From: Raillietiella orientalis
Taxonomy: Eukaryota
Assembly: GCA_036172245.1 (NCBI GenBank)
Contig: JAYWIR010000111.1
Coordinates: forward strand, 1 to 64,000
DNA: 64,000 bases
Reading direction: 5' to 3'
Program-made: the position numbers and the translations under genes
In this document: positions 1-54,560 of the stretch, piece after piece
Numbering within the stretch: position 1 is the stretch's first letter
How the letters are laid out: every line of letters begins with the position of its first letter
The notes under the pieces: model-generated
Told to the model about the DNA's origin: nothing
Seen by the model: the letters and a program-made list of their open reading frames with translations, nothing else
Databases searched by the model: none

Positions 1-1752
1 TCACAATAGTGAATGCGGATGCCAAGTTGATAGCTAAGGTTTGGAATGAGCGTTTGGGACGGGTTGCAAACGCCTTCAACAGCCCGGAACAGACGTATGC
101 TGTTCCGGGGCGAAGCATGGAGGCGAACCTGTTCCACGCTTCCACCTGGCTAGAGCTCCAACACGAAAGGGGTTTGATGCGCACCGGGAATTCCGGTGAG
201 TCCGTCAGTCATGCGACGGATGGTCGTATGGAGGTGGGAGCACTTGCGGTCGCTGTCGACTTGCGTAAAGCATTCGACAGCGTCGACCAGAATCTCCGTT
301 GGGGACTTTTGGAACGCTTGGGCGTCCCGGCCTCATTATTGGCCTATCTGCGCTCTAGCTGGCGCGATGCGCAAATCAATGTTACTTTCAGCGGGCATAC
401 TGTTCACGGCGTGCCGGTGCGACGTGGGATCCGGCAAGGAGACAGCCTGAGCCCCTTGCTCTTCAGTACCTACTTTGAGTTGGTACTGAAAGCGTGCAAG
501 GAAACTCTGGCGCACCTGCCACATGAATGCGCCGGACCGCTCGCGGTTTCAGCATATGCGGAGCACCTTCTGCTACTGCACCCTATGTCCTCCCCGGCTT
601 CGGCGATCGAGAAGTTCTTCGACCTGCTGAATCCAAAAACCGGGCTTAGGGTGATCAGGGCGAAGTCGTCCGTGATGCCAGCTGGTGCGGCGTGGGCAGG
701 GCAGCAGGACTGGGTCCGTTTGGGGATCCCCACGGTGAGGTACTTCGAGTACCTTCGTGTGCCGTTGGGGGATTACTCCCCAGCGGAAGCGTGGTCCGCC
801 TGCTTTCAAAAAGTAGAGACGGCTATCAGCCCGTTCCGAGGCGGCAGGTTTTTACTGCCTGAAAGGGCCGCAATTTGGAACCGGTTTGGAACATGTTCGT
901 GGCTCCTCTCCTCTCCGTTCCCTGCTTTTTGTTTGCCCCCCCACAGAGAGGATCAAAAAGCGGACGAAGGACCTCCTCCGTATCGCCCTTTGGGGCAACG
1001 GGAGGGCTCGAGTCCGCTTGAAGGACTTGTGCGCTCCGCGTCGGGACGGTGGTCTCGGCCTCCTGAGATTGGAGCGGTTGGAGCTGCAGCTCCAGTTCCG
1101 GATTTTGGCACTTGTGCCGGAGATGTGGTACACCTGTTGGTGCGGTTCTGCACGTCTCCTCCTTCAGCAAGCCACCGGCAAGACGGGACTTACGTCGTTT
1201 CTTGCAATCCATCGAAGCCGCATCAACCGATGTGGGCTTCAGCTACGGAGAGTTGCTGCGCTGGCAAGGAAAAATCAAGGATGGATCATCTGTCTCCCCG
1301 CGAACGGTAGTGCCTGGTTGCAGGAAACCGTTCGAACGTGGGGACAGTTCGGCATGCAACCCTCCCATCAGGAACGAAGGTTCCTGTTTGGGTGTTACGG
1401 AAGTTGCACGCTTGGTGAGATCCTGGAGGATCCTAAGAAGAGAGCGTGATCAGGAAGAACCTCCTTGCTGCTGCGCTGTTCTCCCTAGTGGGACATCAGG
1501 ACAGCGATGTAGCGGCGTAGTGGAAGGTTATAATAAAAACACTACTGGAAGGAGAGGTAGCAAAGAGAGTGGAAGACGGGCCAGCTAACTGATGCTGCGA
1601 CCCCGAGTACGCCTCCTAATGGACTTCTGCGCTGGGGAGCGCTGCTGAATGTTCCAATTAAACATCTGAAGTGGCCCCCGGTTCTTATGAACACTTCCAT
1701 CCTCCCCTTAAAATGGCAAGAGTCGGCATTCCTGTTGCAGCATTGCTGTCCC
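1..1752 (+). pseudogene. Partial ORF2 (RT and C-terminal region) of an L1/Tx1-like non-LTR retrotransposon, decayed
   Basis: ORFs 9..1310 and 886..1449 contain DLRKAFD and RGIRQGDSLSPLLF. YADD has decayed to YAEH, there is a frameshift near 895, and the fragment ends abruptly against an inverted ORF1. Confidence 0.9.
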
Positions 1753-3340
1753 CTGGTTACCTTCCTCCATTGGAGTCGCCTCCTCGTCGGCTTCCGCACG
1801 TGGGTGATGCCCGACTGGAGGTCCCACGATGCCATCCACTGATGCTTCCTCCATTGGATTTCCCTCGCGCGGAGGCGGAATGCACCTTCGGAGTTTCTGG
1901 GATTTTCGCCCCGCGTTCCTTGGTGGTGCTACCGCAGAGAAGGATGCATTTACGGCCTCCCGGTCCCACTCACCTAAAAGGGCCATTTTAGCCGCTGCCA
2001 TCCTAAGCAGTCCCTTCCGCGAAGGGTTTTCGCGTTCAGCAGCCGTTGCCGCGAGCTCCTCCACAGCCTTCTCGGGGGCTGCGTCTTCCGTTTCGGCGAG
2101 TTTGTCGCCAGGCTGACCCTCTTCGCAAGCAGAGGGTGGGTTTTCGCGCGTATTGTTCGCGGAGGGAAAATCGATTGAAGCCGTATCGCCTCCGGTGTTG
2201 TCGTAGGGAACGTCAATGCGTTCCAGCGTAACCGTTCATTCTCGGAAAGTTTTTTCGCGCGACACGGATTGAGATTTTGTTCCGGACGCCGCCTTCTCTC
2301 CTTTCTTCGTGACATGCTTGTCTTTTTTGTCTTTTTTGGCCTTGACTAGCTACCAGCCCTTTACTCCCTCCGCGGTTTCGGGAAGATTTTTCTCCGAAGC
2401 CGCGCTTGGAGCTTGGGTTATTGGCAGCTTTTCTCGGCCAATTTCCCGGTTTTCCGATTTTTTTTTTCCCGCGCGTTTCCCTTGCGCCTTTTTGGCGGTA
2501 GAAGGAATCAGCGTGATGCGTTTAGTGCACACAAGACGAAAGTGTCCCTTCTCCCCGTACAAGTAGCAGTCGATGTTTGGGCACCGCTTTCGGATGTGTC
2601 CGACCGCATCGCACTAGCCGCAATACTGTGGCTTGCCGGCATACCAGAGGTCTACCGGTTCTCCCGCGACCTCAAGTATGTGGGGAAGCTTCGCATCGTC
2701 TTTTGGGGTTACACGTGACGCGGTAAGGCCCCCGAAGTGGCGCCCGTAGCCCTCAAAGATTGTGAGCTTCGGCCACAGCGCATGTACGTCCCCGTATTTA
2801 CTCAGTTTTTCTTGGACGGCAGTGCGCGTCATGCGCTTAGATATTCCCGTCAAGTGGATCACTTCCGAGTGGTCGATTAACACCGGAAAGATCTTACGGC
2901 CGTCCATGATCAGCGAGGTATTAATCAGGCGATCGGCTAGGCTGATGTTCTTGCACACCAGCTTAACGCGCTGCACCCCGCTGAGCACGCACAGACCTTC
3001 CAGATTTTGCTCACGGACATTAGCATTTTGAAGCGCTCTCCTGAAACAGCGCGCCGTGTTTCCTTCAAACAAAGGGCCTACCTTGTATACAAGCGATGGC
3101 TTGTATCCACAAGCCCGATAGGCGACTTCCTCGGCCAAGGCCTCCGCACTGGGGGCGGCGACCATTTCGCTCCAAGTCTTCGCCAGCTGCGAAGACGGTC
3201 CAGGGCCTGTTGCCCCCACATCTGTAGGTTGTGTGGGTGGACTTGCTTTCCCACGACTACATCCATCGCGGAGGCAGGCCTGGCAATCCAGGTCTGCCTG
3301 CTTATTGGACGAAGAAGGCCAAAAGCACTCATCCCATGCG
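1753..3340 (-). pseudogene. 5' part of an L1/Tx1-like element: decayed gag-like ORF1
   Basis: ORF 2614..3219 (YKPSLVYKVG...VDLWYAGKPQYCG) and ORF 1708..2064 are homologous to the intact ORF1 at 7031-8779. Confidence 0.88.
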
Positions 3341-3344
3341 TAGG

Positions 3345-5497
3345 TTTTTCACTTGGGTGAGCCGGGACTTTTGTTATTAAAATTTTTCAAAATTAAAAAA
3401 AATTTCATAATTTAGTCTTGTTTTGTTTATTTTTTTGTTGTTCTTCTTGTTTTTAGTCGGGACGTATGGCTCGTCTGTATTGAGGCAGTTGTCCTTACGG
3501 ACCGGAAAGCCGATAAGGTCCTAAACAATGGTGATGGGGCGGGGAAAAACAAAAATACACAAAAAAAAAAGAAAACGGCTGGGGGGTAATGTTCTTCGGG
3601 AGGGAAAGGGAAGGGAAGGAATCACGGTACGCCGTGAGGAGGACTCTGCATCCGTTCACGAATGCGGACGTGTGCCTGCAAATGTTTTCCAAGTCGGCGC
3701 CGACGGCAGGCTTTCTCTAAGGAGATGGTTGCCCAGTGGATGGCATTCCGACTGGCATGTCCTCTCTTTGACGCGGTCCACTTGTCCAGTATTCCGCGTA
3801 TGCAACAGAGCACTGCTACACACCCGGAAGCTGGCAAGGCGTCCCGCATCAGGAGTAGAAATATGTTCTTCGGGTCGCCCCGCGGAATGGTGAAGATCGA
3901 CGAGAGTCGGTCCCTCATATCGCGAAGGGCAACGCACTCAATGTTCAAGTGAGGAAAGATTGCTCTTTCCCCACAGTCTGTGCAATTAGCTTCCACACTC
4001 CCCGGTGTCCAGTGAGACAAGCGCGCTCTGCCTAAGAGTCCCCGATGGAGCAGAAGCAACGCCGTCTCCTGCCACTGCAGGGAAAGGTTCCGTTATCCCA
4101 CGACGCCGGAGGCCACTTCCCCTCCTTCGGAGGTACTTCGAGCTGCGCGCCCCAGCGTGAAAGTCCATTCGGCGGGACACTCGGGGTACTAGCGTCGGCT
4201 AGTTCCCGGGACGTCCACGCCTTCAATAATTTTTTCTTGCCTCCGATGAGGCACGACACTTACCACGATGCCTCCTGCTGGGTGTCCACAACTTCCGTGA
4301 GGGAGGGCAGCACTGGGGCAAGGGGGGTAAAGGAGGCCCAAAGAAGCTTCCGTAAGCTGCTGACGAACTCCTGCAGTTGCTGAACAGCGTGCCTCCCTCT
4401 ACGGAGGAAGAAGTCCTCATCGCTGGAGTTGTTGATTTTAGCCCATGCGGAAACGGATTCCTGGAGCCAGATAGTCCAGTCCGCAGGGATGCAGAGATCC
4501 ACGGATTGTCTCTCAACAGGGTAACCAACTCTTGCAGCTGAAAACCACAGTAGTTTAGGCTGCGGTCGTTGGTTACTAGGATTGACGTCAATCCATGACA
4601 GCCGGTTTCCCTGTGAGCCAGAAGTCTTGAAGGTGCACACCAGGGTGCTGTCCAGTACTTTGCCACAAGGGCAAGTTTACGGAATCGAAGCTGTCGCTCC
4701 ATGCGCTCCAGCGTCAGGAGACGAAGTTCTCCGTGCCTGCGTGCATTGCACAGGTCTTTAAGACGGAAGCGGGGACTCCGATTGCCCCAGAGTGCTTTCT
4801 AATAAGTTTCCTTGTCATTTTACGAATTTGGTGAGGGGTGGGAATACTACAAGTAGGATGCGGAGGAAGGGGTTTGCAAAAGCGTCCCACACCGCGACCC
4901 CTTCCCGCAAGTAAAATTTGCCGTCTCGGAACAGGCCGATCGCCAAATCCACCTTTCCGAGACGGTCGAACAAGGCTTCTGCAGCGCACAAGTCCGCCAA
5001 CGGAACGCCCACGTACTTGAAGTATACGCTTGTCGGGGTCCCCAAGCGGCTCCAAGCCGACCGTTCTGCCAACGACGAGTCCGGAGAAATGATTGACGAC
5101 TTCCCCCTGTTTACCACTGAACCCGTCCCACGGTAAAGAAGCCCATAGAAATCTTCGAGCGCCGATGCCGGGGTGGACCCTGGAAGCAGAAGAAGGTCGT
5201 CGGCATGGGACGAAACGGCGGGCGTGACGGGATATGAGCTCGGCAGGGTTGCCAAAGACTCCCTGTATGCCCTCAGCACCAACTCAAAGTAGATGATGAA
5301 GAGAGGGGGATCAGGCTATCACCATGCCGGATGCCGCAACGACTCGGCACGCCGTGCACGTGCCGGCCGCTGAAATTGATGTTAATTAGCGCGAAGCGAA
5401 AGCAGGAGCGCAAGTAAGCCTGGAAGACGGCCGGAAATCGAAAGCGTTCCAGCAGCTCCAGGAGGAGCTCCTGGTCGACGCAATCGAAAGCTTTACG
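3345..5497 (-). mobile_element. 3' half of an L1/Tx1-like element (RT from K-A-F-D, C-terminal CCHC, 3' UTR, terminal hairpin)
   Basis: ORFs 4815..5282 (HADDLLLL) and 3622..4059 (CTDCGERAIFPHLNIEC). Terminal CCCGGCTCACCCAAGTGAAAAA at about 3345-3366. Broken at 5497 by element A. Confidence 0.88.
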
Positions 5498-6940
5498 TTG
5501 GTTAGAGTGGACGTGTTTCCTCGGTGCTCCTCGTGCCGGGAACCGTCCCTAGGTGTAGACTTCGTGTGTGCTGGTGGTCGATCAGGCAGCAATGCCTGAC
5601 ACGGGAAACAGTGCGTGTCAGGGGGCGTTGGCAACGTCGCCTTCTGAAGAAATTGAGTGCCAGTTGGCAGCAGCAACGTCGCCTCTAGAAAAGTTCGAAT
5701 GCCAGGGGGCGGCGGCAACGTCGCCTTTAGTGGCGAAGGAGGTGGGGGCGTCCGCCCAAACACAAACGGTCCACGCTGCAGCGCGGGCGTGGAGCGCTGT
5801 TGTGTCGCCGCCATCGACTGCATCCGCGGCGGATATGTCGGCCTATGTGGAGGAGGAATGTAACCCATCATTGTTCTACAAGGTAGGCAATCTATATTTT
5901 TTAGAAAGCGCTCGCGCCTTTTCGAAGGGGATGCGCGCTCTCGATGTTGAAGAGGAGGAGCTCTGAGCTAGAACCATTCGTAGCGGGGGGCAGTACGTAG
6001 AAGTGATCTGCAAACGCGCAGATCTGGCCCAACGTATGCTCAAAACCCCCGTGGTGATAAGGAGATGCAGGCTCCTTCCCATTGCGGCTGACCACAGTAT
6101 GGTGGTCCACCTTTTAGGAGTTACCGCGCGGATTCGCAAAGAACAGTTACGCGCCGCGTTAGACAAAGAAGGCACGGCACATGCAGTATGGACCAAGCCT
6201 AGTCCTTTCCAAAACTATACCACAGTTGAGTGCGCCTTCATAGCTGCCTGCATAACCTTTCGGGAGGGCTCTACCCTTCCCCACAAACTGGTGGTCGGCG
6301 AAGAAAGCGTCGACCTCTGGTACGTGGGGAAACCCAAATACGGTGGCTTCTGCAAAACGTCAAGACACCTCAAAGGAGGTGTTCCAACGTACAGTGCCAG
6401 GTACAGTGCCAACAACGGGCCAAACGAAAAAAATTTGCTCACAATCCGCTGTGCGCGTGGTTTCCGCGAGGAACTTAAAAAAACGCGCGCGGCTGCTACT
6501 CAAAAGGATGGCGGCGAAGGCTGCTCCTCAAGCTGTGCCAACCACACCCGTGGTTCAGGCCGCAGCCGACATTCCGGCAACGAATGCCGAAAAGATCGAC
6601 AAAATCGGTCAGGTGTCGGAATGGCAAGAAGTCACAGCGACAAAGAAAAAAAAGTCGAAGAAAGAACGACGAATTGAAAAAAAGCTCGCCTACCAAAATA
6701 AAAAACAGCAGGTTAGCGAGAATTTACAAGAATGCAGCGTCGTCGTAAAATGCGTCCCCGCTGAACGGCGCAAGGTAGAAATCGCTGCTAACGACGAGCA
6801 ATCCACTGTAGAAAATGTAAACAGCGTGGGGAGCGAACCGGCGGAAGCGTCCGTCATCGAGACCGTGATCGACGACGCCGCCTTCGAGCGTGCGGCGGAG
6901 GAGCTGGCTGCATCGTTGCAGCCAGAAACCTCCACGGCCA
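5498..6940 (+). mobile_element. Element A: 5' end and decayed ORF1, same subfamily as element C
   Basis: GGACGTGTTT at 5509. ORFs 5568..5966, 6003..6677 and 6343..7011 match the ORF1 of element C (AYVEE-x-CNPS-x-FYKVGNLY). Truncated by element B. Confidence 0.88.
5616..5741 (+). repeat. Three 42-bp tandem coding repeats (CQxAxATSP) in the ORF1 N-terminus
   Basis: Units start at 5616, 5658 and 5700 and share GCAACGTCGCCT. Confidence 0.8.
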
Positions 6941-7030
6941 GTTGGAGGACGTGTTTTTCCTTCAGTCCTCAAAGAGTAGTACGAAAGCGCTTTCTTGTGT
7001 GTGGTGTTTAGTGTACATCGTCGGTGTCCA

Positions 7031-8779
7031 ATGGCCACGACGCCAGAGGACACCGCGATGGAGGTGGGAGTGGGGGAGGCTAGTTCGCCCCCACAGCCTA
7101 CTGGAGCAGGGGCAGCCGCCCAGGAATCATCCCCGGCCACGCCGAGGACATGGAGCGCCATGGTGGCCGCGCCCAGCGCAGAAGCCATGGGGGAGATGGC
7201 CTCATACAAGGCCTCCGGGTACAAGCCATCGCTTGTCTACCAGGTAGGCAAATTGTTCGACGGCCGGACAGCGCGCGCCTTCAGAAAAGCGTTCATGGAC
7301 GCGAATATTAATGAGAAGGATCTGGACGGCCTCTCCGTCCTCAGCGGCGGGCAGCGGGTCGAGGTGCTCGGCAAAGATGTCACCTTGGCTCGCCTAATCC
7401 ATGCGCCGCTGAACGTAGACGGTCGCAAGATCCTGCCAGTATCAATGGACCGCTCCGTGGTGATCCACATGACTGGCATGACCAGCCGCATGACGCCGTC
7501 AGCGGTTGGTGAGGAATTGCGGAAATACGGTGAGGTGCACGCACTGTGGCCGAAACCCTCCATTTTCGACGGCTTCGATAGCCTTTTTGGTGGGCAGGCT
7601 GCAGCGCGGGTCACCGTAAGGGAGAATTGTGGGCTTCCCCACAAACTACAGGTGGCGCAAGAAAACGTCGACCTGTGGTATGTAGGGAAGCCCCGGTATT
7701 GCGGGCATTGTGATACCGTGGGACACCTACGTAAAAGGTGTCCCAATATACAATGCCATTTGTGCGGGGAGGGGGGCCAAGTTCGGCGTGTGTGCCCCAA
7801 ACGCCCCACCCCGGTTCCCCCTGACGCGAAAAAAGCGAAGGGGAAACGCGCTTCAAAGGTCTCTAGACCTAAAGTGGAAAAGGGCCAGCACAAGCAGCCA
7901 ACACCTCAACCTCCGGCGCGTAAGCCGGAGGATAAACCTTCTGAAACGGTGGAAGCCGAAGAGGGATGGCAGCTTGTAGAGGCCAGAAAACCAAGAAAAC
8001 TCCCACCCGCGGAGAGCAAAGAGCGCAAGACGGCCGGAAAGCCGAAAAAACCCGGACCGCGCACGAAAACTCTGCGGGAGTGCACGGTGGCACTAGAACG
8101 AATCGTCGTTCCCGAGATTGCCACCCGGAGCGTCGATGATCCCCTTGCCGTTTCTGCTGCGCCCGAGGCTCACGACGGCGAACCGTCTCTTTACAGAGAG
8201 GGTGAGCCGCGCGACATAGCGAGGGTCGAAGCCGCCGACGCCGCGTTCGCGCAGGCGGCGGAGGAGCTCGCGTTCACGCTGGCCGAGCGTGAGAACCCCT
8301 CGCGCAAGGCCGTGCGAAGGCCGGCTCCGGTAAAGTCGGCACCCACAGGTAAGTTAGACCTGGGGGCCGGAAGCACATCCTCCTCCTCGGAGGCACCCCC
8401 CCGGAAGTCGGGACGCAAGTCCCAGAAGCCCAGGAGGCGCCTCCCCTCCACCAGCGAGGAGGAGAAGACGGAAGCCGTCGCCAGCGTGGGAAATTCGGAG
8501 GAGGAATTCCCACGCTCGGAAGCCGTCGATGCGGCCATCCCCATGGAGGAGGGTGAACAGGGGGGTGAAGTCCCCCCTGCAGGCGCCGACCCTGAACAGC
8601 CCGCCCCCATGGAGGAGGGCGAACAGGTAGGCGCGACTCCACCTGCGGGTGATCCGGCCGACGCGCCGGCACCGATGGAGGAGGGGGACCAGGTGCCTTC
8701 AGCACCTGACCCCTCTCGTCCACCTAGCGTCCCGCCCCACCAGGTGGCGGACGCCGCACTGCCATCTTCGCAGGAGTAA
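7031..8779 (+). CDS. ORF1 (gag-like nucleic-acid-binding protein, CCHC zinc knuckles), open, 582 aa
   Basis: ATG at 7031, knuckles CGHCDTVGHLRKRC and CHLCGEGGQVRRVC, acidic Pro-rich C-terminal repeats, and TAA at 8777-8779 overlapping the ORF2 start position. Confidence 0.88.
   Translation: MATTPEDTAMEVGVGEASSPPQPTGAGAAAQESSPATPRTWSAMVAAPSAEAMGEMASYKASGYKPSLVYQVGKLFDGRTARAFRKAFMDANINEKDLDGLSVLSGGQRVEVLGKDVTLARLIHAPLNVDGRKILPVSMDRSVVIHMTGMTSRMTPSAVGEELRKYGEVHALWPKPSIFDGFDSLFGGQAAARVTVRENCGLPHKLQVAQENVDLWYVGKPRYCGHCDTVGHLRKRCPNIQCHLCGEGGQVRRVCPKRPTPVPPDAKKAKGKRASKVSRPKVEKGQHKQPTPQPPARKPEDKPSETVEAEEGWQLVEARKPRKLPPAESKERKTAGKPKKPGPRTKTLRECTVALERIVVPEIATRSVDDPLAVSAAPEAHDGEPSLYREGEPRDIARVEAADAAFAQAAEELAFTLAERENPSRKAVRRPAPVKSAPTGKLDLGAGSTSSSSEAPPRKSGRKSQKPRRRLPSTSEEEKTEAVASVGNSEEEFPRSEAVDAAIPMEEGEQGGEVPPAGADPEQPAPMEEGEQVGATPPAGDPADAPAPMEEGDQVPSAPDPSRPPSVPPHQVADAALPSSQE
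8541..8710 (+). repeat. 66-bp tandem coding repeat (PMEEGEQ...), about 3 units, in the ORF1 C-terminus
   Basis: ATGGAGGAGGG at 8543, 8609 and 8675. Related arrays near 26215-26375 and 44310-44460. Confidence 0.85.
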
Positions 8780-9147
8780 CACCTGGGCTCGCCAGTCGCC
8801 GTCGGATTCGCGCCGCCAGTTGGAATGTCAACGGGCTCCGCGACGACGGTAACAGGCGATATACAGCCGACACCCTGCAAGAGTTCGACCTGGCCCTGTT
8901 GCAGGAGTTCCACGTGATCACCGCGGCAGACGTCCAGGAGATCGAGACGATCGCGGGGGGTCGTCTGTACTGGCAATGCGGCATCCGCAACACCTGCGGG
9001 GTCGCGTTCTTCGTGAAGCCGGCCATCGACGCTGCCGTGAAGGGCGTGCGCATCGATGACGACGGTCGGGTCGGTCAGCTGACTCTCATCTAGTCCGACT
9101 CGATCGATCTTATCGTCACGAATGTGTACGCCCCAACCAGTCAAAAG

Positions 9148-9559
9148 TGCGGAATAGTGGCGGCTTGGAACGCCACCAGAAGAAGGCGTCAGCCAACCGG
9201 CAACGCCTTACACTGGACTCGCGTTTTCGTGCGAAGTGTCTGCAAGTGGCGCCACTTGAGCGCTGAAAGGACTCAGCTTGTGGGGATCCTGAAAAGGATC
9301 TAGGGGACCTCTCCACGCGCACCGTGATATCTTCCCCGCCCTCCCAACCCTACAACATTTGTTCCCCCCTACATTAAAACTTTTTGTTTCTTTTTGTTTT
9401 TCTTTATTTCCCATCCCCGCGCATCGGAAGGACCTCTCCGGCACGGAGCCGGTAACCAGCAAGCTGTTTTGGAGTGGTGAACCTTCGGGTTCGCCACGCG
9501 ACATTTTCTCTGTTATTTTATTTCTAAGAAATAAATGCCCCGGCACATCCGGGTGTGAA
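9148..9559 (+). mobile_element. 5'-truncated copy (ORF2 end plus 3' UTR) inserted in the APE domain of element B
   Basis: Near-identical to the reverse complement of about 29087-29495. Flanked by CAACCAGTCAAAAG (9134-9147) and CAAGCAGTCAAAAG (9560-9573). Confidence 0.92.
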
Positions 9560-9751
9560 CAAGCAGTCAAAAGGGATACAGCAACCGTACCAGGCTGCTT
9601 GTATCCCTGAAGCGCGACTGGCTGGCGAACACGAGCGTGCGGAAGGCTCACCTGATAGCGGAAGATTTCAATGGAGTGCGGACGTGTTTTTCTTCGCTCT
9701 AGTCTCCGTGCTTTCATCCGCTTCATCTTGGCGTCGTACATTTTGACGACG

Positions 9752-11674
9752 ATGTCGACCCAACTTGAAGCTACTGAAGTTGGAGGAACAGCATCCGGAT
9801 CTGCAATCGCGGAACCGACGGCCGCATCCACTTCGTCTTTCTCGCCAATGGAGAGGAGTTTTGCTGACGTTGCTGCCACAGCAGCCGTCAATGGGAAACC
9901 ACTCGACGAGTCGGAGTTGCGGGCATAGGTAGCCCAAGGCTATTGACCTGCTCTCCGATATAAGGTGAGTGGTTTTCTTTCTGCGCGCGACGGGAATCAG
10001 TTCAACGATGAACTGACCCGTGTTGGCGTGCGGGAGGAAGACCTTCTCGCCATTATGCCCGTACAAGACATGGGCTATTTCAAGGTGCGTTGCAAAGACG
10101 CTGCACTTGTGCAACGCTTGCTGCGCACCCCGTTGTCGATCCGTGGCCAGAAGGTCTTCCCGGCCGCCATGGACGACTCATTTGTGGCGGAGATTTTCGA
10201 CATCGAGTCGGAAATCTCCGATACTGATATTCGGAACGCGTTGGCGAAATTCGCCACGGTCCATGCGCTGTGGAGGGTGCGTAGCAACCTCAAGGACTTC
10301 CCGTCCATACACAGCGGAGTCGCTGGAGTCCGGCTTACAATGCCGGACCGCCGTCTGCTGCCCATCAAACTACAGGTGAAAGACACGGTCGTTCACCTGT
10401 GGTTCGTTTGGAAAGTAAGAACGTGCGAGCAATCCGGGAAGGAGGGGCATTGTTTGGATAAATGCCCCTCTGGAAAATGCCGTTATTGCAAACTATCCGG
10501 GCACCAATTAAAAATTTGCCAGGATCTTTTGCGAAAAAAGGCAGCCGCGGAGCTCCATTTTAAAAAACAAAGCGCGGATAAAAAGAAAAAATCTGCGAAA
10601 ATCCTGGAGACCCCACGGCAGAAATTCCGAAAAATCGCGAGGCGGAATGTCGCCCCAAAGCAGCAGGAAACCTCGCAGGCGAAGCCCTGCGCGCCCCCTC
10701 TCGCGGCAGAGGAGCCGCAAAAGAAAGGGTGCGGGGAATCCGGGGCAATGGTAAGTCCCCCTAGGTGCAATAGCTGTCCTTCCCAAGCACGCCCGGCTCT
10801 TTCGGACTTCGAGCAACCGGCGGGGATGCCAATGGACAACGGCGGTAAGGACACTTCCAGTACCGTCAGATCCATTCCTTCACCTCCTGCAGTGGCTGCG
10901 AAGCCCAAATCGGGTAAGAAGGGTTGTGCCGTGTCGACTTCGGAAGTCGGCAAAAAAAAATCCGCGTCGCGATCCAACACCGCGAAAGCGGAGAAAAATC
11001 TCACGCCGTCGCAGTCGGAGAGCAAGCTCTCGACTGGCGCGGATGCCATGCCAACGAAGGGATTAAAAGCCCTTCCGAAGGCAGCGTCCATGACGAGCGT
11101 GGCGGAGCCATCGAAAGTGCTCCCGTCCAAAGACGCGGATGGCTTCAAAGATGGCCATGGAGCACAATCTCCATTTACGGCGCCACGCGAAGTGAGGAAC
11201 CGTATTGAAGTAAAGAAGACTTCAGCAAAGGTCCCTCGTGCAACTGCGCGTGAGCACGCTGAAAACGCGCGCGCCGGGAAAGCAGCCGTCACCAAAAGCG
11301 ATCCTCTGGTGACGGAAAACGACAACAAGACAGCTGTCAATCCAGCAGAACCTGTCACTGCTTGGCTGAAGGCCGAAACCCGATCGAACATGCGCCGGTC
11401 GGACTCCGAAATGGATGCCGTTCCGATCACCGAGACGAGGACAACTCGTTCGAAAGCGTGTGCGCGCCGATCAAAAGTAGGCAGCCAGGCAACGCTCGCC
11501 GCGAAGCAACGCGAAGTCTCCACGAAACCCGACGGGGTTCATCCTGGCGTGGAGGCATTACATGCATGCAGCACGACAGAGGACGGTGGCGACCGTCCCC
11601 TCCAGCCAGTCGAGCTGCTCGCCGTCTGCTCGCCGGATAAAGCGAGCAAAAAGCTGCCACCTTCCCAGCAGTAA
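9752..11674 (+). pseudogene. ORF1 of element I (two in-frame stops near 9926 and 9944)
   Basis: ORFs 9671..9928 and 9965..11674 are in the same frame. Knuckles CEQSGKEGHCLDKC and CRYCKLSGHQLKIC. Confidence 0.87.
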
Positions 11675-40690: not shown

Positions 40691-40754
40691 CTGAAATCGG
40701 TTCTTCCTGCAGGAAAAACCTGGCGCCTGGAAAGTGCCTTAAGATTACCTACCT

Positions 40755-45700: not shown

Positions 45701-47735
45701 CTCGACGAGCCTTTTACCACCGGCAAAATTCTTGCCGGTATTAAAAGGTTCAAGAGGCGGAAAGCACGAAGGGAGGGCCTCCTGTCCGCGAAGTTTTTCC
45801 AATGCTTCGCGGCAGAGTTGGCACTCCTGGTGCTTCAGTAAAGCAGGCTGATCCAAGACGAAGGTGACCTTCCCGCCTCGTTTCGGTCAGCCAGAGTGAG
45901 GCTCCTTCCTAAGGGAAAAGACCTGAGAACATTGAACAATTATCGTCCGGTCACAATTGTCAACACGTACGCAAAGCTGATTCCTGGACTGTGAGCTTCG
46001 CGTCTAGGACAGGTGGCAGACTCCATAATTAGCGCAGAGCAGACATACGCTGCTCCCGGGCGAAGTATGGATGCCAACCTGTTCCTCGCGAGCACATGGT
46101 TCCATATGCAATAATGTCAATATGAAACAGCGACAAGGATTAACAACCCGACTTTGAAGCCGCCAGTTGGACTAAGGTCGGACAACGGAGCAGGGAAGGG
46201 AGCCCTAGCGCTCGCAGTCGATCTCCACAAGGCGTTCGACTGCGTGAATCAGGAGCTACTGTTGAAGCTTTCGGGGCGCATGGGCTTCCCACCCTCTCTT
46301 CTCTCATTCCTGGGCTCTTCCTGGCGGAATGCGCTAATCAACGTCTCCTCCAGCGGACAAACAACGTACGGCGTGCCGGTGCGGCAAGTCATACAAAAGG
46401 GAGATAGCCTCAGTCCTCTGCGCTTTAGCACCTACTTTGAGTTGGTGATGAGAGCGTACAGGGTAACATTGGCTGCCTTGACTAGCTCGTGCACCGGCAC
46501 GCCTGCAGTAGCTGCTTTCGCCGACTACCTTCTGCTGATGTTGCCCATGTCCGCCCCGGCAGCCGCAGTCGAAGATTTCTTCGATCTACTAAGCCGTAGG
46601 ACTGGATTGCAGGTTAACAAAGCGAAGTCGTCGGTGATACCGGTGAATGCGACTTGGGCTGGACGGCCTGACTGGATCCGCATGAAGATCCTCACGGCTA
46701 CGAACCTAAAGTACCTGGGTGTCCCGTTGGGGACTTCTGTCTCGTAGAATCCTGGTCAGGTCGTGTCCAAAAGGTAGAGTTGGCAATAGGCCCGCTCCTG
46801 GAAGGCAAGTTCCTTCTGCAGGAAAGGGCCGCGGTGTGGAACGCGTTTGCGGCTCCCATCCTCCGCCCCTTGCTTCTTGTGTGTCCCGTCCCCCGTGACC
46901 TGAAGAAGAGGACAAAAGACTTTCTCCGCATCGCCCTCTGGGGCAGCGGGAGGCCTCGTGTGCCTCTTAAGGACATATGCGCTTTGCGTCGGGACGGAAG
47001 TATTGACATCCTGACGTTGAAGCGCATGGACATACAGCTGCGATGGCGCACCCTAGCCATCGCAGCAAAGACTTGGTACACCTGCTGGTGCGTCCCGGAT
47101 AGCATCCTCGCCAGCCGAGTATCGAGGACGCAAGGACTCGTGTCTTTCCTTCTGTGCCCCGGCCGGAAGGTCAGGAGATGCGGCCTTCTCCTCGGGCGCA
47201 TGGAATCCCTGGTGAGAGAGAACGGCTGGACGGTATGCAGGTTTGCTAACTCCTCCGCTTGTCTGGAGGAATCCGTTGGGACGTGAGCCAAGCTAAACCT
47301 CCAGACTTGACGTGAATGGAACCGCCTGCGACAAGACTGCAACGCCTGCTGCAGCCTACGGACCACACTGGAGTGTCCCGCCTAGAGCACTTGGGCAAAG
47401 ACCACCCCTTATGCTTCGACGCTGCCCTTCCTACGAAGGGCTTCAACCACCTTTCGGACGCCGGAGTGGCACGTCTCCTACCGGATCGCAGGCAGGGAAA
47501 AGAAAATGAGCGGTTGGACAAGGAGTAAACTGGCAGATGCCACGATCCCGAGTGCCCTCCCGCGTGGACTTGTTAGATGGAATGAGCTGCTCGGCATCCC
47601 GACGGATGGCCTGAAGTGGCCCCCAGTGTTAATCGAATCCAAGGTTCTCCCGCTAAAGTGGCAAGAGTGGGCACTGCTGCTGTTTCACTGGGGTTTACCC
47701 TGCAACGCGCGCCGCTTCCACGGGACGCGAGGAAG
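42701..47735 (+). mobile_element. Element F: near-complete decayed element of the B subfamily
   Basis: GGACGTGTTC near 42704, ORF1 remnants 42920..44532, APE 44565..45484 and RT 46154..47286. Interrupted at 47735. Confidence 0.88.
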
Positions 47736-48110
47736 TTTTCACCCGGTCACGCCGGGGCGTTTATTGCTAAACACTATGTTTTCGCGGTACGAGGCCTCGC
47801 TACGGCCAATAGTTTTTTGGACCTGCCGCAGGCTGGCTTGATTCTCATCGGCAGCGGAGGGGGTAGAAGGTAAAAACGAAAAAAAAAATAAAAGAAATAA
47901 ACGAAAAGAAAATATTTGCAGGGCTGGGAAGGGATCACAGCCCGATGGAGAAAGAGACAATCCTTTCTAGGATGCCCTGGAGGTCCCTCTTCATTGTTCC
48001 CAGATGGGACCAGCCGATCGCGATTCGCAGGTATCGACCAGCGTGTACGATGGGATCCCTGTCGATGCTTCCTCTGTTGGCTGCGCTCCACGCGGCCACA
48101 ATCCCTCGGC
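47736..48110 (-). mobile_element. 5'-truncated 3' end inserted antisense in element F
   Basis: AATAAACGCCCCGGCGTGACCGGGTGAAAA on the minus strand; ORF2 end GILERIVSFSIGL-TGA. Confidence 0.87.
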
Positions 48111-48394
48111 TCCAGCTAAAGCAAACGCAGAAGGACCTAGAAAGCATCCTGCGAAGGATGGGCCCTCCTCCTAATAGATAGTGAACCCTCCCCCTCCCTC
48201 CAAACTCCTTTTGTTTTTCTTCATTGCATTTTTTTCGTTTTCTCCCAAACTCCCCTCCACTGCCGCGGAGCGTCACGCAGGGCTGTGTCCCCGCGTCCCG
48301 GCAGGCCCGGTGTTGTGCGGATGTTAGTGGGGCCTCGTACCACGTCTCTGTAGAGTTTTTCTGATAAATGCCTTAGGCGTACACAAGTGGCATC
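48111..48394 (+). mobile_element. 5'-truncated 3' end (GGCATC tail)
   Basis: DLESILRRMGPPP, a 3' UTR like those at 24260 and 27480, and a decayed hairpin at 48369-48394. Confidence 0.82.
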
Positions 48395-51091
48395 ATTAAA
48401 TCCCCGGGGAAGGCCGTGCACAAGGAACTCCTCGCAGAACACGTGGACCGAAACCTTCATGCGGTCCCAGTCTTTAAGTTTCCGGAGGATGAGGCCTCCC
48501 AGTACTTTGTGAAGATCTTTCTCCGCACCTGAGATGCGCGTCCAGTCCCCGGGCAGACGCCACGCCCTGGATGGTGGTCCTCTGTAGCGAGGCATAACCT
48601 CGAATATCAACCGGATTTGGTCCGATAGCGTCGACGGAAGTTTCCCTCGTCTACCGACCCGTGGGCACAGGTCGGCGTCAAGGAAGACGTGGTCTACGCT
48701 TTGGACCATTTCCGGTAGATCCACCAAGAAGTTGCGCGTGCGCATAGCAGCGCACAGCTCGTTAGATGCGTATTTTTGCTTGCACGGCACACCTGTGAGC
48801 AGGAGGATGTTGAATTCCCCACCGATCAGATGCACTTTGCGTACGTTTGTATCCGCCAGCCAGTCGCGCTACAGGGTTTCGAGGAACAAAGAACGTTCCC
48901 CGTACCCGCATCCTCCGCTTGGAGCGTACACATTGGTCACGACAAGGTCGATCGAGTCGGACCACCTAAGGATGAGCTGGCCAACCCGACTGTCGTTCTC
49001 GAAGCGAACGTCCTTGACGAAGGCGGCGACTGATAGCTTCATAAAAAAGGCGACGCCACAGGTGTTGCGAGCGCCGCATTGCTAAAACAGACGACCCCCT
49101 GCGATCCTCTCGATCTCCTGGGCGTTCTCCGCGGTGATCACGTGGATCTCCTGCAGGAACGCCAGGTCGAAGTCACGCAGGGTGTCGGCCGTATCCCACC
49201 TGTTGCCGTCGTCGCGCAGCCCTTTGACGTTCCAGCAGGCTATGCGGGTCCTACGGCGATAGGCGAGCCCAGGTGTTAATCCTGGGAAAGTGGCAATGGG
49301 GCTCCCGTCACCTTGTCGTGCGGGACTCTAATAGGAGGAGGTGCGTCGCGCACCGCTTGTCCCTCCTCCATGGGGGCCGAGTGTTCGTCAGGGACGTGCA
49401 GAGGAAGGGGGGTTTCACCCACCTGTACTTCTTCCTCCATGAGGATAGCCAGCTGCACGGTGTCGAGAAATCAGGGATTCCCACCCTCGCCTCCCATGCT
49501 GCCGTCTTCCCCCTCGGGTGCCAGTTCATCCTTCTCCTTCTTTATCCGTATGCGCCTCCTGGGATTCTGGGACTTGCTCTGTAGTCTTCTTTGCTGGCGC
49601 ATCCGTTGAGGAGGACACACTTCCGGCATCCGATTCGGCCTCACCTGCATCCGGAGCCTTCCTCGCGGGCGGCCGTCGTAAGCCTTTCCTGGAGTTCTTC
49701 TCACGGCCTTGCAGTTCTGCCTCGAGTTCTTCCACTGCCTGCTGGAAAGCGGCATCCCCGATCGCGTCAGACGCGGCGCGCGGTTCATCCTCTGTTTCCC
49801 CAGAGGGTTCGCCATCGACCGTCGCGGCTTCGGCGGACGCGAGGGAGGAAATTGCTCCCCCGGGAGCGGCATCGAGTGCCTCCACACGCTCTTACTTTAT
49901 CGAACAAGCGCGAAGTTTTTCGCGGCACGGGTTTTTACGCTGCGTTTTTGTTTTCCCTGCGCTTCGTTCGGTACTCCAATGCTTTCTTCGGGGCTGTACC
50001 GTCTGTCGGCCTTCGCCGTCGTTAGCGTCGTCGGGAGTGCTCGAAATCGATGTTTGCTGGGATGGCTTAGAGACTGGCATCTGGCTCCTTACGGCCTGCT
50101 TCATGTTATTCGTCTCTCTCGCCCGTTTCCCCTTTGCCTTTTTGGCAGCGGGAGGGAGCGGGATTTCTTGTCTTGGGCACACATTGCGGACGTTGCCCTT
50201 GTTTCCACATAAGTGGCATTGGATGTTAAGGCACCGTTTTTTTTAATTGCCCTGTAGCATCGCAATGGCCACAATATTTGGTCTTTCTCAGTTACCAAAC
50301 AACGAATATTTCCTCGCCGATATTTACTTTGTGGAGAAACCCACCATTCTCTGGTAGTGTGACGCGGGCAGCGGCAATCCCACTGAAGAGCCTTTCGTAC
50401 GTTCGGAAGACATTGGGTTCGGCCCAATACGCGGGCACATTACTGTGTTTTGACAACTCCTCATGGACACTGGTTTTGTCCATTCAAAGTGCTAGGCCAG
50501 TGAGGTGGACCACGAAAGAGCGGTCCTCCATCACAGAAAAGATAATGCGGCCGTCCACCGTAATGGGGGTGTTTAGCAGGCGCTGCACTAGACTCGCTTC
50601 TCTGCAAGTCAGCTCAACTCGCTGGCCCCCACTAAGGACCGAGAGGCCCTCGATGTCTTCCTCTCTCACATTTAGTCTTTGCAGCTCCATTTCAAAGAAG
50701 CGTGCAATTTTCTAGTCGAGCACACTGCCTACCTTGTAGATCCGCGACGGTTCTTAACCGCTGTCCTTGTAGGCAGTCTGCTGCGCTACTGCAGCCGGGG
50801 ATGGTGCAGCAACGACAGCACTTCAACTCGTCGCCGCTGGCGAAGAGGGTCGCGAAGGGGCGGCTGCCCCCAATTCCGATGGGGCAAGCGCCTTGGATTC
50901 CGTGAGGGCGGACGCCCCCACATTCATGGTTGCTGGAGAGCAAGTCGCCTCTTCTCCCTCAATTTCCATCGCGGTGTCCTCAGGCATTTCTGCCATGGGG
51001 CACCGGCGCTCCTACACACCAGACAAAACCTCCGAAATCCTTCGCACTAACTAGACTGCTGAGCAATGCAAACCACCTCTGCTCCCTAGAA
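48395..51091 (-). mobile_element. Element H: decayed 5' half (ORF1 and APE)
   Basis: ORF1 remnants 50484..50690, 49526..49885 and 49276..49458; APE remnants (GEFN, VDH) in ORF 48221..48835. Confidence 0.85.
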
Positions 51092-51756
51092 GGACACGGG
51101 GAAGTGTGTGTGTTAACTGTATAGAGTGCGGGGAAAAGGAAACCTTCCCCCACTTAATCATCGATCGTGTTTCCCTCCGCGTGATGTGGTACTGACTCTC
51201 TTCGATCTTGAACATTCCGGTGGGCGATCCCAGGAACATCTTCAGACGCCTCCTTATGCGGGACGCCTTGAGAACCTCTGGGTGTGTAGCAGTTCTCTGT
51301 TGCATACGTGGAATCCTGTACAAGTGGACCGCGTGACGGAGAGGCCGGACCAGTCGGAATGCCATTCACTGGGCAGCCATCTCCTTAGAGAAGGCCTGCT
51401 GTTGGCGCCTACATCGTCAACATTTACCGACACTGGTTTGCATCCGGAACCGGATGCAGAGGTCTCCTCACGGCGTACCGTGATCCCCTCCTCTCTCCCC
51501 CCAGCCCAGAGAACATTGCCCCCCAGGCGTTTTCTTTTTTTTGTTTTAATTTTGTTTTTCTCGCCCCTGCATCTGTGCAAATTACCTTATAAGGCTGCGA
51601 ATCGGTAAGAAAAAGTGCCATAAGTACGACAAACACAAGTATGCTGAGGAAAAAGACAAACATTATGAACGAAAGACTTTATTGTTGAATTTTTTTCCTT
51701 CTCATGATTGTGAAAGAATTTTAATAATAAAAACCCCGGCTCACCCGGTTGAAAAA
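51092..51756 (+). mobile_element. 3' end of an element (CCHC finger, 3' UTR, hairpin)
   Basis: TRGSVCVNCIECGEKETFPHL; hairpin CCCCGGCTCACCCGGTTGAAAAA at 51734-51756; similar to 3345-4010. Confidence 0.83.
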
Positions 51757-52780
51757 CCTGAAGATTACCTGCCACCGAAGTACTTGAAGTACCTCACCAT
51801 GGGAATCCTTAAAAGGACTTAGTCCTGCTGTTCTGTCCACGCCGCTCCAACTGGCATTACGGACGTCTGAGACCGCAAGAGCTCCCTCCCCCACCCAAAC
51901 ATCTGAACCTCTGCCGGCGCACGCACCAGAATTTCATCTACGCACCAAGCCCTTTCGTTTTTCGAGCTGTAATCAGGTGAAAGCGTAGAACAGTTTTGCC
52001 TCCATGCTTCGCCCGAAAACAGCATATGTCTGTTCCGGTTTGATGAAGTCGTTTGCAACACGTCCCTGGCGCTTTGCCTAAACTTTTGCTGGCAACCTGG
52101 TGTCCGCATACACTATTGTGATGGGCCGCCAGTTGTTCATGCTCGTTACATCTTCTTCCTTAAGAAGGAGCCGCATCCTTGCCGAACGAAACGATGTTGG
52201 AATGCCACTGTCTCGTGTATCAGCAAGGTGAGTTGATGTACCGGGGTGGTAAGCTGAGCCGCGAAACTTTGATGGAACTCCGCGGACAGGCCATCCTTTT
52301 CTGGAACCTTGCATTTCTTACGCTTTTCCATGACCAAGAATATCGCTTCTATCCTGAAGGGCTCTTCGAGGAAATTTTTTTCCTCTTCCCTGATCGCTGG
52401 AGCGCGTTCTGGGCTCAGGCCACTAGGGAGACGTTCTTGCGTACAGGGAGTTATAGAAACACCGCAGGAGGCCGCGGATTTGAGCGGTTGACGAGTACTG
52501 TTGTCCCTGTTCCTCCAGCAAGGTGGCTGATCTGGACTGCCAGGTTTTCCTCTCGGCTCCCGCTTTGTATTCCGGTAGCCTGCGGATGTCGGCGGTCCTG
52601 GCGTAAGGTCAGGCCTGTAGATACGACCTTTCGTATCTACAGGCCGTATGTATCCGTTTCCGGAGGGGGCAGTTTTCAAACTTCTATGGGTTGAGGAGAG
52701 CAGGTCATCTCCCCTTCACCAATCGCCATTGCGGTGTCCTCAGTTATTTCTGCATTTAAAGACTGGCGATGCCACACATA
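51757..52780 (-). pseudogene. Highly decayed element with internal deletions (ORF1 start, linker, RT pieces)
   Basis: EDTAMAIG, AERQTWQS-like sequence, NNWRPITIV and VMPVGAAWTEQQD remnants. Confidence 0.75.
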
Positions 52781-52939
52781 ACGCGAACTTAACAACTGCA
52801 TTTCTCTGACCAGTCCGCGGGGCGATGCGAAAGCACGTTCACCCGCTATAAGTACGCTGAGCAGAGTAAGCCCTGAAAATGCCTGGTACGGGGATTGGGA
52901 TTTACCCCCACATGATCGTTGATTGTCCTGCACTTAAAC

Positions 52940-53452
52940 ACTTTTGGGAATGACTCTTGAGATCCCGGTTGACAGCCTTCCGAGAGTCATTTTTCGGCTC
53001 TTCTTCGTGCAAGATGCCCTGCAGCCAACCTTTGCTGTAGGAGCGCTTTGCTGCTTCCCCGGTATTGTTGCTGCGTGGTGATGATGAGACGAAGAAAATG
53101 ACTACGACAGCAACGTGATCGAGTATGCAGCTCTCTTCTTGTGAACAGCAACTCGTTGGCCCCATCTATAAAGAAATATGCAAGAGGACCTCGAAGGCAT
53201 CCTTCAGTGAATGGACCCTGCACCAAGTAATCAGTGATTTCTTATCAACCCTTCAGAGATGTCTTTTTTTTTCATTGTGGTTTATTATTCATTTTGCTTT
53301 TTCCCCCATCCACTACCGCTGCGAAGGAGAGTCTAGTCGTTCTGCCCACCAACGAACCTCCAGGTCTGTTGTTGTGTTAGCTGTAGAGTGAACCTTGTAC
53401 TGAATCGGCTGTTCCGTTTATAGTAAATTCCTTGCTGTGACCGGGTGGCAAC
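52940..53452 (+). mobile_element. Decayed 3' end (GGCAAC tail)
   Basis: KRTSKASFSEW region homologous to other ORF2 ends; terminal TGACCGGGTGGCAAC. Confidence 0.7.
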
Positions 53453-54560
53453 ATGGAAACGCCAGTTCCGCATGGTCTTTGTCACCTTGTTGCAAACAAC
53501 GAAAGCAATCCTACAGGCATTCTAGGGCTTTGCCGTTAACTGGACGTCCCGCCTGAGCGACCGGCGAGATCGGCGGCTTGCTGTTCGGTGAGAGCGTGTG
53601 TCTCAAGCAACAGCACCAGATCGAACTCGCGCAAGACGTAAAATACAAACTTCCCATTATCATTGTCCTGCAGCCCGTTGACGTTTCAACAGGCCATGTG
53701 GACGCGACGGAAAGATGCAAGCCCACTCATTACTGCTGCAGACATGGCAGAGCTACCTTATCCCCGTCCGGCGAGGCATCAGCCTGAAGCACGGCATAGT
53801 GGGGGGTGCAGAAGCACTCGTTCTTCCCCACGCCACTTGCGGCTCTCTGGAGTCGAGGAGAATCGCCTTGGACTTAAGAGTATCGGGAACCGTTCCCGGC
53901 ATCAGGTTTGCTCCAGGAAACTTTGGGCTTGCGCGCAGCCTAGGGTTTCCCGTGGGCTTGAGGAACCAGAATCGCTGCTGACGGACTTGCTGCCATGGGA
54001 CTCAACCTCGGAGTAACAATTTCGTGTGCATGATAGACGTTCTTTCTACCTACTCTTTTGCTGTCAGCCTGTACCTGCTCCAGCATTCAGCGAGGTTGCC
54101 GCCGTCGCCTATCCCGATTTCAACGTCTCGGCGTCGTCTAGTTCCCTTTCGCTGCGGGCGACAGCGGCAGCGCACATGACCGCAGCGGAGACTTTTTCTT
54201 GCGAATTTCTTGATGCACGGTGCTGCCTCCTCACTCCGCCTACCTCTCTGATGAGGAAATGGGAAGGATCTCTTGTCTTCCACTGTTTATTCTTTTCCTT
54301 CACAAGAGTCCAACCGTATTCATCGTTCTCTATGTTGCCTCGGCTTAATGCAAAAGCTGCAGTATCTTTTGCATCCTTTCGAGGTCCTCCCGCTGGGCGA
54401 TAGGGGCCAATTTCTTCCTCGCCACCTTTGCCTTTTGTATCTCTTTATCGCAAGGTACGGGCAAATTCGAGCAAGGTTTTGCAGTCTTTCCCACGTATCA
54501 AATCTCTGCGGACGGACTGTCTTCACTTTTTACACTTCAAGGAAGTTATATGTGAGGTAG
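53453..54560 (-). pseudogene. Highly decayed ORF1 C-terminus and APE N-terminus at the cluster edge
   Basis: CAGCAG-TAATG junction at 53728-53732, then NVNGLQD and EFDLVLLLETH; eroded knuckle (NLARICP). Confidence 0.7.

Follow-up and report, generated by a model that had tools for sequence, protein, structure and literature searches.

The first 54,560 nucleotides (nt) of a 64,000-nt stretch of DNA from Raillietiella orientalis (assembly GCA_036172245.1, contig JAYWIR010000111.1, positions 1 to 64,000 of the forward strand; hereafter the window) are filled nearly end to end with full copies and fragments of one kind of non-LTR (long terminal repeat) retrotransposon. These are diverged APE-type long interspersed nuclear elements (LINEs) of the L1 superfamily, which belong to at least six lineages and lie nested in one cluster. 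The cluster is probably the product of genuine site-specific self-targeting by target-primed reverse transcription, in which the lineages nest in copies of their own family. For nine of the 14 insertion events that were mapped, the exact site and orientation are common to two or more events (within 3 nt), a number never reached when 14 random events were simulated 200,000 times (5.6-kb element, two orientations), the maximum being six.

Composition of the cluster

The cluster (1-54,560) has a G+C content of 52-62%, against 40-49% from 54 kb to the end of the window. Some 30 pieces were ordered and oriented in a tblastn map against one open reading frame (ORF) 1, the complete ORF1 of the piece named V1, and one ORF2, both taken from the window. 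At the DNA level the copies are 63-83% identical, with the exception of one tandem pair at 97.4%. The long ORFs carry the domains RVT_1 (E 2e-21 to 8e-23) and Exo_endo_phos (E 6e-14), both above the Pfam cut-offs, and in ORF2 an N-terminal APE endonuclease is followed by a reverse transcriptase (RT), the layout expected of the L1 superfamily. A zf-RVT match in ORF2 is weak (21.7 bits, below the cut-off of 27.5), and a conserved C..C pattern follows the HxTRG motif; the separate upstream ORF1 has CCHC zinc knuckles (zf-CCHC 23.7 bits, cut-off 20.8). Among solved structures the best relative of an ORF2 of 1125 amino acids (aa; 29342-32719, minus strand) is human LINE-1 ORF2p (E 3e-39), R2 following at E 3e-18 or weaker.

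A protein database gave 15 matches to the query, the best of which is 63% identical and comes from a metagenome contig while the others reach at most 31%; no named Tx1 element and no named Zepp or ZeppL protein is among the 15. LINE-like clusters without taxa were matched in the ESM Atlas, viral contigs searched with ORF2 gave no match, and Rfam had none anywhere in the window. Between lineages of the cluster, the APE domains are 45-84% identical.

Reuse of exact insertion sites

The 300 nt beyond each 3' end were mapped onto reference proteins, and the junctions were then refined by eye. The tandem copies U1 and U2 were counted as one event, and D, of which only the 5' junction is visible, was added. 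The junctions A1/B, D/E1 and V1/V2 were left out of the count, as they are not 3' ends and look like rearrangements or 5'-junction deletions. In the following, pieces are named by letters or numbers (their positions are given in the map below), and a slash within a motif marks the point of insertion.

The site PGF/G (ORF2 aa 233/234) was entered antisense in three events, by T into M/N (48395), by V2 into G (27708) and by E3 (24470), whose flank holds an 11-mer identical to the flank of T at the same offset. Two antisense events each fall on KAF/D (ORF2 aa 509), where X entered E and D entered C at the same nucleotide, and on HxTRG (ORF2 aa 1005/6), entered by M/N in HP (41011) and by element 11 in T (47734). 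VRF/D (ORF2 aa 32/33) is a further reused site beyond those listed in the initial annotation of this sequence, with two antisense events, R into Q' and, judging from a remnant, probably element 9. Five sites were entered once: GDFN (ORF2 aa 96; W into E), the position just after YAP (ORF2 aa ~62; Z into E) and the ORF1 C-terminal region (U into G) in sense, and ORF2 aa 289 (by C) and KYFG (ORF2 aa 670; HP into Q) in antisense orientation.

Much of this agrees with the initial annotation, which had seen KAFD used twice, PGFG three times including a remnant, and GDFN and YAP once each. The mapped junctions assign KAFD to X, with a 14-bp target-site duplication (TSD), and to D, with its 5' junction at the same nucleotide, PGFG to T, V2 and E3, GDFN to W (8-bp TSD) and the YAP region to Z (10-bp TSD). 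Its statement that the insertions are mostly antisense likewise stands, at 11 of 14 events in the tally of mapped junctions. It had counted HxTRG three times, of which the events of M/N and element 11 remain, the supposed third junction (51092) being the other side of the M/N event. The GRFF-like site said to be used twice has to be given up, since it is the shared 5' boundary of the tandem copies U1 and U2 (GGRLLW) and not a site in a host.

The 3' junctions are exact; on the 5' side there is a TSD (8-14 bp), a small number of added bases or a loss of host sequence. The TSDs measure 14 bp in X (16819-16832 and 22361-22374), 8 bp in W, 10 bp in Z and 11-12 bp in M/N; no clear TSD is present at the junctions of T. 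The 14-mer that X duplicated is intact in T and W. Random nesting in a repeat-rich region, with the coincidences due to chance, could appeal to nothing beyond the general tendency of transposons to build up in repeat clusters, and with no simulation reaching nine shared events it is refuted, leaving it hardly any probability. The flanks are thus not evenly spread along the host elements, an outcome that the initial annotation had named as one that would speak against it.

Separate insertions or copies of one event

Recurrent junctions could also arise if one ancestral insertion had been multiplied, either through segmental duplication or through a chimera in which host and insert were mobilised together. 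Such copying would agree with the continuous alignment of C/D and E/X across the junction (71.6% identity) and with the pair U1/U2, which is a true tandem pair formed at the DNA level or from the same master (97.4% identity, dN/dS, the ratio of nonsynonymous to synonymous divergence, ~0.85). The inserts at one site, however, differ in length and in their 5' truncation points (at PGF/G, V2 has 1.26 kb beside the full-length T and E; at HxTRG, element 11 has 0.24 kb beside the full-length M/N), and X carries its own 14-bp TSD in E. Codon comparisons gave dN 0.45, dS 1.35 and dN/dS ~0.33 for C-E3, 0.22, 0.74 and 0.30 for D-X, 0.25, 0.88 and 0.29 for E3-T, 0.28, 0.88 and 0.32 for E3-V2, and dN 0.52 and dS 1.00 for G-N. 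As dN/dS is 0.2-0.5 across host pairs and insert pairs alike, the partners diverged under selection, as active lineages and not as dead, duplicated DNA. At KAF/D, the two hosts come from different lineages (E from lineage I, C from lineage VI), and the host pair (C-E3) is about twice as diverged in dS as the insert pair (D-X). Because of the differing insert lengths, the TSD of X, the dN/dS values and the unequal divergence of hosts and inserts, we read the recurrent junctions as separate insertions; descent from a single ancestral event is largely refuted within the window, and we consider it very improbable. The view of the initial annotation that these are independent site-specific insertions into related elements is therefore upheld by the mapped junctions, the simulations and dN/dS, and the second outcome that it had named as contrary to its proposal, copies of one ancestral event, is not what these comparisons gave.

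Lineages and their target sites

Lineages were delimited from identity matrices over three ORF2 segments and the last 240 nt. Lineage I comprises E, T, V2 and, loosely, R, has the tail GGCA[A/T]C and uses the sites PGF/G and VRF/D; lineage II (M/N and element 11; tail GAAAA(C)T) uses HxTRG, and lineage III (X, A1 and D; tail GAAAATC) uses KAF/D. Lineage IV consists of W and K, with the tail GATAAA and the site GDFN known from W. The members of lineage V (U1, U2 and Z) lie at two unrelated positions, each after ..CAACC, and those of lineage VI (C and HP; tail GAAAAAC) also lie at two unrelated positions. Q stands alone, outside all six lineages. The APE domains of E and T, both users of PGF/G, are 84% identical to one another and 63-64% identical to that of M/N, a user of HxTRG, and the 3' untranslated regions (UTRs) cluster in the same way. 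In lineages I-III the choice of site goes with the lineage and its 3' tail.

The initial annotation went further and proposed that each subfamily has one site, that the targets are relatives only, and that the sites lie in the most conserved DNA of the hosts. One site per subfamily applies to lineages II and III and breaks down for lineage I, with two positions, and for lineages V and VI, with unrelated positions, so that the partition is incomplete. The restriction to relatives is not supported, as E and T carry intact PGFG sites, the target of their own lineage; in keeping their own target site these two elements give no sign that a lineage spares itself, and none of the 11 events with known host lineage is a same-lineage insertion. 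Nor is a location of the sites in the most conserved DNA supported: scored in windows of +/-3 aa over up to 13 elements, the eight ORF2 sites have a mean conservation percentile of 0.60 (p = 0.17), with VRFD, GDFN, PGFG, KAFD and KYFG in the 71st-93rd percentile and YAP+3, aa 289 and HxTRG in the 11th-22nd.

Several observations weigh against site-specific self-targeting as the general explanation. All counts come from one 64-kb window with 14 events, and the sites of E3 and element 9 are read from remnants of 11-25 nt, the 11-mer of E3 being also present once in the 3' region of W. Several junctions (A1/B, D/E1 and V1/V2) are rearrangements. Lineages V (Z, U) and VI (C, HP) each lie at two unrelated positions, and element 9 combines a lineage-I-type tail with a 3' UTR body nearest to lineage VI. 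The two positions of lineage I have in common only ~NNN-RAA-WC-S locally, a core that occurs 14-35 times per element, so that lineage I would have to recognise more than this core shows.

These points bring in a rival in which there are loose hot spots and no partition. A short, low-information endonuclease preference (for example RAAWCS in lineage I, CAACC in lineage V), together with base pairing between RNA tail and nick, would here produce the one-motif pattern through small-sample clustering on favoured matches in a GC-rich repeat. It would account for the 6-nt core as the only common feature of the two lineage I positions, for the unrelated positions of lineages V and VI, for tail ends that overlap the start of the TSD by 1-3 nt, and for the lack of significant enrichment of sites in conserved segments. 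On the other hand, if such a core offered about 25 equal sites per element, five lineage I events would fall on two positions in about 1 in 1,000 cases (our own arithmetic), at KAF/D and at HxTRG hosts from different lineages were entered at the identical nucleotide, and a contig from beyond the window shows HxTRG once more (see below). We therefore regard loose hot spots as unlikely and prefer site-specific self-targeting. Whether the latter extends to a guild of co-resident LINE lineages that have divided the family's own coding sequence among them, each with a landing site to itself, and that parasitise and disable one another while building and maintaining a single self-attracting, possibly centromeric cluster, is a more tentative matter, and we consider it possible but rather doubtful. 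Similar reserve applies to the part of that joint reading in which the endonuclease and 3' tail of each lineage would be tuned to a different ORF2 position of the others. A safe harbour for the insert and the inactivation of relatives, both suggested in the initial annotation, are evolutionary readings compatible with the data.

Element ends and proposed insertion mechanism

Full-length copies start with GGACGTGTT. The 3' end common to all copies consists of AATAAA, a 4-6-bp hairpin (CCCGG..CCGGG), GTG and a 5-8-nt tail. An nhmmer search with a profile of these terminal features found 14 ends at E<=0.01, the other nine of 23 rows (E 0.25-18) being treated as noise, and all 14 lack poly(A) or any A-run. 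The terminal hairpin is short, with four predicted pairs, two of which covary in one sequence (both sides changed, pairing kept). The tails fall into the classes GGCA[A/T](A)C, GAAAA followed by T, TC or CT, GAAAAAC, GTGAACA and GATAAA. In all 14 ends a canonical AATAAA stands immediately before the hairpin, ~20-25 nt from the end (for example at 9531-9561); no copy has an A-tail, however, and the starting point of reverse transcription seems to be internal and fixed. At the opposite end, X and D each have exactly 11 additional nt that separate the TSD from the conserved 5' start GGACGTG (5498-5508 and 22350-22360), both stretches ending in AG(G/A)GT, and other full-length copies have 7-11 nt there; the extra nucleotides of X and D may be a true 5' leader or an untemplated addition.

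In the mechanism that we propose, new copies enter by target-primed reverse transcription at sequence-defined nick sites. The entered sites lie in ORF2, and once in ORF1, of older related copies; lineages I-III reuse the same nucleotide position in different hosts, and all four of their sites were entered antisense. The APE endonuclease of each lineage would have its own nicking preference, and the RT would recognise the conserved AAUAAA-hairpin-tail 3' end in the manner of the "stringent" type, which would also explain why poly(A) is missing. The last 1-3 bases of the tail, which overlap the start of the TSD, may form base pairs with the target at the nick. Head-to-tail pairs such as E-V1, element 9-G and perhaps U2-U1 would result when a site, or the TSD copy of it, is hit again. 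With targets present nearly only in copies of the family, insertions would pile up in one place and the cluster would attract its own growth.

Relation to known LINEs

The clusters of Zepp and ZeppL, L1-clade LINEs of Coccomyxa subellipsoidea C-169 and Chlamydomonas, respectively, have been described as arising by nested insertion that targets existing copies (PMC8226300, PMC3446292). Such self-targeting LINE clusters are thought to form the centromeres of several green algae. The nest in the window resembles them in that Zepp and ZeppL are found almost only in nested, centromeric clusters that are GC-rich relative to their flanks. However, the 3' end listed for Zepp and L1-1_CR/ZeppL is (A)n (PMC3747384, Table 3), not the hairpin plus short tail of the window's elements. 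Only one ZeppL family is present in Chlamydomonas (PMC9940879), in contrast to the at least six lineages in one cluster here. Nucleotide-exact, lineage-specific target positions were not found in the passages on Zepp and ZeppL that were compared, where the targeting is given only as nested insertion, the original Zepp target-site data lying outside the comparison.

A second parallel is the Tx1 clade, described as an animal group of APE-type LINEs of the L1 superfamily in which related families each insert at a specific sequence, including other transposons, as in the window (PMC4494074). According to the same source, target choice is attributed mainly to the endonuclease. The targets include Tx1D for Tx1, Mariner-N4_AMi for Tx1-Mar, LTR retrotransposons for Tx1-8_Crp and Tx1-4_AMi, and U2 small nuclear RNA genes for Keno. 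These targets are unrelated transposons or RNA genes, whereas those in the window are the coding sequence of the element's own relatives and the lineages nest in each other. Target-specific insertion, a feature of the Tx1 clade, is found here as exact site reuse in three lineages.

In R1/R2, TRAS/SART and other site-specific non-LTR elements the 3' junctions are precise, insertion leaves a defined TSD or a small deletion, priming needs a structured 3' UTR, and repeated hits on one site yield head-to-tail arrays. The elements of the window resemble them in these features; the targets of R1/R2 and TRAS/SART, however, are multicopy genes of the host or telomeric repeats, not their own copies. Tandem transposon dimers formed by double insertion have been described in work on Drosophila elements and the origin of satellites (bioRxiv 10.1101/158386), and they have a likeness in the head-to-tail pairs with a TSD-sized remnant in the window, namely E-V1 (~22 nt), element 9-G (32 nt) and U2-U1 (4 nt). 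The stringent-type L1 lineage of plants has a conserved 3' stem-loop in place of reliance on poly(A) (PMC3747384), as do the elements here, but these differ in sequence and host and have the hairpin directly after AATAAA.

Word searches with incomplete coverage of the literature found no description of related LINE lineages that each occupy fixed positions in the coding sequence of the others. The self-targeting described here is a variant of Zepp nesting and of Tx1 targeting of transposons, with the exact, lineage-linked ORF2 sites as its new part. Site reuse may help to explain how LINE clusters build themselves, and, with lineage-linked landing sites that are exact and bounded by TSDs, the question of clusters becomes a testable one of endonuclease specificity. 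If the partition into private landing sites were true, it would supply a sequence-level mechanism for the Zepp-type behaviour of one cluster per chromosome. The natural set of related APE domains with different targets would be useful for understanding, and possibly for re-aiming, LINE integration.

Evidence beyond the window

A public DNA sequencing run, X1, contains a tenth of the sampled sequence words, and no RNA run is listed as containing them. Matching X1 to positions 34600-54560 gave 524 contigs, mostly less than 90% alike. One of them joins a 3' end of the element 11 type to an HP-like HxTRG site, and the 17-mer of its hairpin is absent from the window; this single contig, of low depth, is taken as a third HxTRG event, external to the window. 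Another joint in X1 (44712 to 47739) has a hairpin end with the tail GATAAACAACC.. that abuts a T-like element, in antisense orientation, at ..IAGG/RL. This is where U1 and U2 have their 5' boundary, and AGG/RL may thus be a further reused antisense site. A third joint (36085 to 47739, "TTA") was considered as an independent event and rejected, as it has the same structure as the W/E2 junction of the window. A scan of metagenome contigs for the hairpin terminus gave at least 119 loci, with one marginal 27-nt blastn match among them; tblastn similarity to ORF1 or ORF2 was present in 0 of the 119 matches listed, and because of this the matches listed are put down to chance.

Map of the nest

The window opens in A1 (1-1745, plus strand), an X-like lineage III piece cut by the window start that spans ORF2 aa 416-990 and is 83% identical to X in nucleotides and 73-76% in amino acids. 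Its right end meets B (1746-3271, minus), a 5' UTR and complete ORF1 with the ORF2 part missing, through a rearrangement and not an insertion junction. Between the 5' end of B and the 3' end of C lies a host fragment recognised by blastx (3272-3343, plus; ORF2 aa ~264-289), into which C (3344-5508, minus; lineage VI, tail GAAAAAC) is joined antisense at aa 289. C extends from ORF2 aa 501 to its 3' end and is cut at KAF/D by the antisense insert D (5509-6945, plus; lineage III), which has the 5' end (GGACGTGTT) and part of ORF1, lost its 3' part and is joined to the 5' end of E.

E (lineage I, plus strand) is the host of three inserts. Its first part (6946-9147) holds the 5' end, ORF1 and ORF2 aa 1-~64 and is followed by Z (9148-9563, plus; lineage V), a 5'-truncated copy 96% identical to U1/U2 that lies in sense just after YAP with the TSD CAGTCAAAAG. 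After the second part of E (9564-9672; ORF2 aa ~62-96), the full-length W (9673-15580, plus; lineage IV, tail GATAAA) stands in sense at GDFN with the TSD ATTTCAAT. The third part (15581-16832; ORF2 aa 96-510) leads to the full-length X (16833-22360, minus; lineage III, tail GAAAATC), antisense at KAF/D with the 14-bp TSD TCGAACGCCTTGTG, and the fourth, E3 (22361-24470), runs from ORF2 aa 507 to the 3' end with the tail GGCAAC, followed by an 11-nt remnant of the PGF site (24471-24481).

Next come V1 (24492-26431, plus; lineage I-like), with a 5' end and complete ORF1, and V2 (26449-27708, plus; lineage I, tail GGCATC), from ORF2 aa 794 to the 3' end, which is joined antisense to G at PGF/G. 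The lower part of G (27709-29084, minus) contains ORF2 aa 1-233, the inter-ORF region and the ORF1 C-terminus. It is separated by U1 (29085-32735, minus) and U2 (32736-36381, minus), two tandem 3.65-kb copies of lineage V with the tail GTGTGAACA that lie in sense in the ORF1 C-terminal region of G directly after ..CAACC, from the upper part of G (36382-37565, minus) with the ORF1 N-terminal half and 5' UTR. Element 9 (37598-37900, minus; tail GGCAAAC) is a 5'-truncated copy of ~300 bp with an approximate 5' limit, and its 3' flank (37566-37597) is a remnant resembling the VRF/D site. K (37915-40136, plus; lineage IV, W-like) covers ORF2 aa 312-1053 and has no 3' end; an isolated, diverged ORF1 fragment follows (40129-40688, minus).

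HP (lineage VI, plus strand) lies in two parts. Its left part (40747-41010; ORF2 aa 918-1005) ends at HxTRG, where M/N (lineage II, minus strand) is inserted antisense with a TSD of 11-12 bp. The 3' part of that insert, M (41011-42702; tail GAAAAT), holds the 3' end and ORF2 aa 238-715, and the 5' part, N (48396-51091), holds ORF2 aa 1-233, ORF1 and the 5' UTR. Between them, antisense at PGF/G of M/N, stands T (42703-47733, plus; lineage I), full length from its 5' end and cut at HGTRG by element 11 (47734-47976, minus; lineage II, tail GAAAACT), an antisense, 5'-truncated copy of ~240 bp at whose 5' junction ~75 nt of T are missing; the 3' remainder of T (47977-48395, plus) ends in the tail GGCATC. 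The right part of HP (51092-51757) extends from ORF2 aa 1004 to the 3' end (tail GAAAAAC) and is joined antisense at KYFG (aa 670) to Q (51758-52638, minus), a strongly diverged host element with ORF2 aa 238-470 and 625-670. R (52640-53453, plus; lineage I-like, tail GGCAACA) is 5'-truncated, and its 3' junction lies antisense at VRF/D (aa 32/33) of Q' (53454-53775, minus), which closes the cluster on the right and is the N-terminal portion of the APE domain of a host element.

The 5' junction of R is complex, and a perfect palindrome of ~34 nt (GGCCTGTAGATACGA..TCGTATCTACAGGCC) lies there, at 52600-52650. Host aa 33-237 are missing between Q and Q', with one endpoint ~4 codons from the PGF/G site, which suggests two nicks or recombination between two lineage I inserts. 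At the 5' junctions at 1745-1750, 6938-6946, 26431-26449 and 47977, the insert is joined to distant host DNA and hundreds to thousands of bases are missing; this points either to deletions of the target that are common when the second strand is joined, or to recombination at a later time.

The tandem pair U1/U2 (97.4% nucleotide identity, dN 0.028, dS 0.033) differs from the reused sites. The two copies share their first nucleotide, which lies within the APE domain ahead of GGRLLW, and both are without the catalytic N-terminus; a short repeat AACC(C/G) is found before, between and after them. The pair came about through tandem duplication, or through two insertions of a single truncated form that is non-autonomous, and is not a case of site reuse; it may represent a non-autonomous derivative with a fixed 5' end that inserted twice at one site, or a duplication at the DNA level.

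Tandem repeats of 42 and 57 nt occur at 5631-5727, 22160-22241 and 25779-25959, in the 5' UTR or ORF1 regions of D, X and V1. For the stretch from 53.6 to 64 kb, a Pfam search with 12 ORFs gave one match, below the cut-off. The flank of lower G+C content contains a 2.37-kb inverted repeat (56460-58826 and 61629-64000) with 93.8% identity between its arms.

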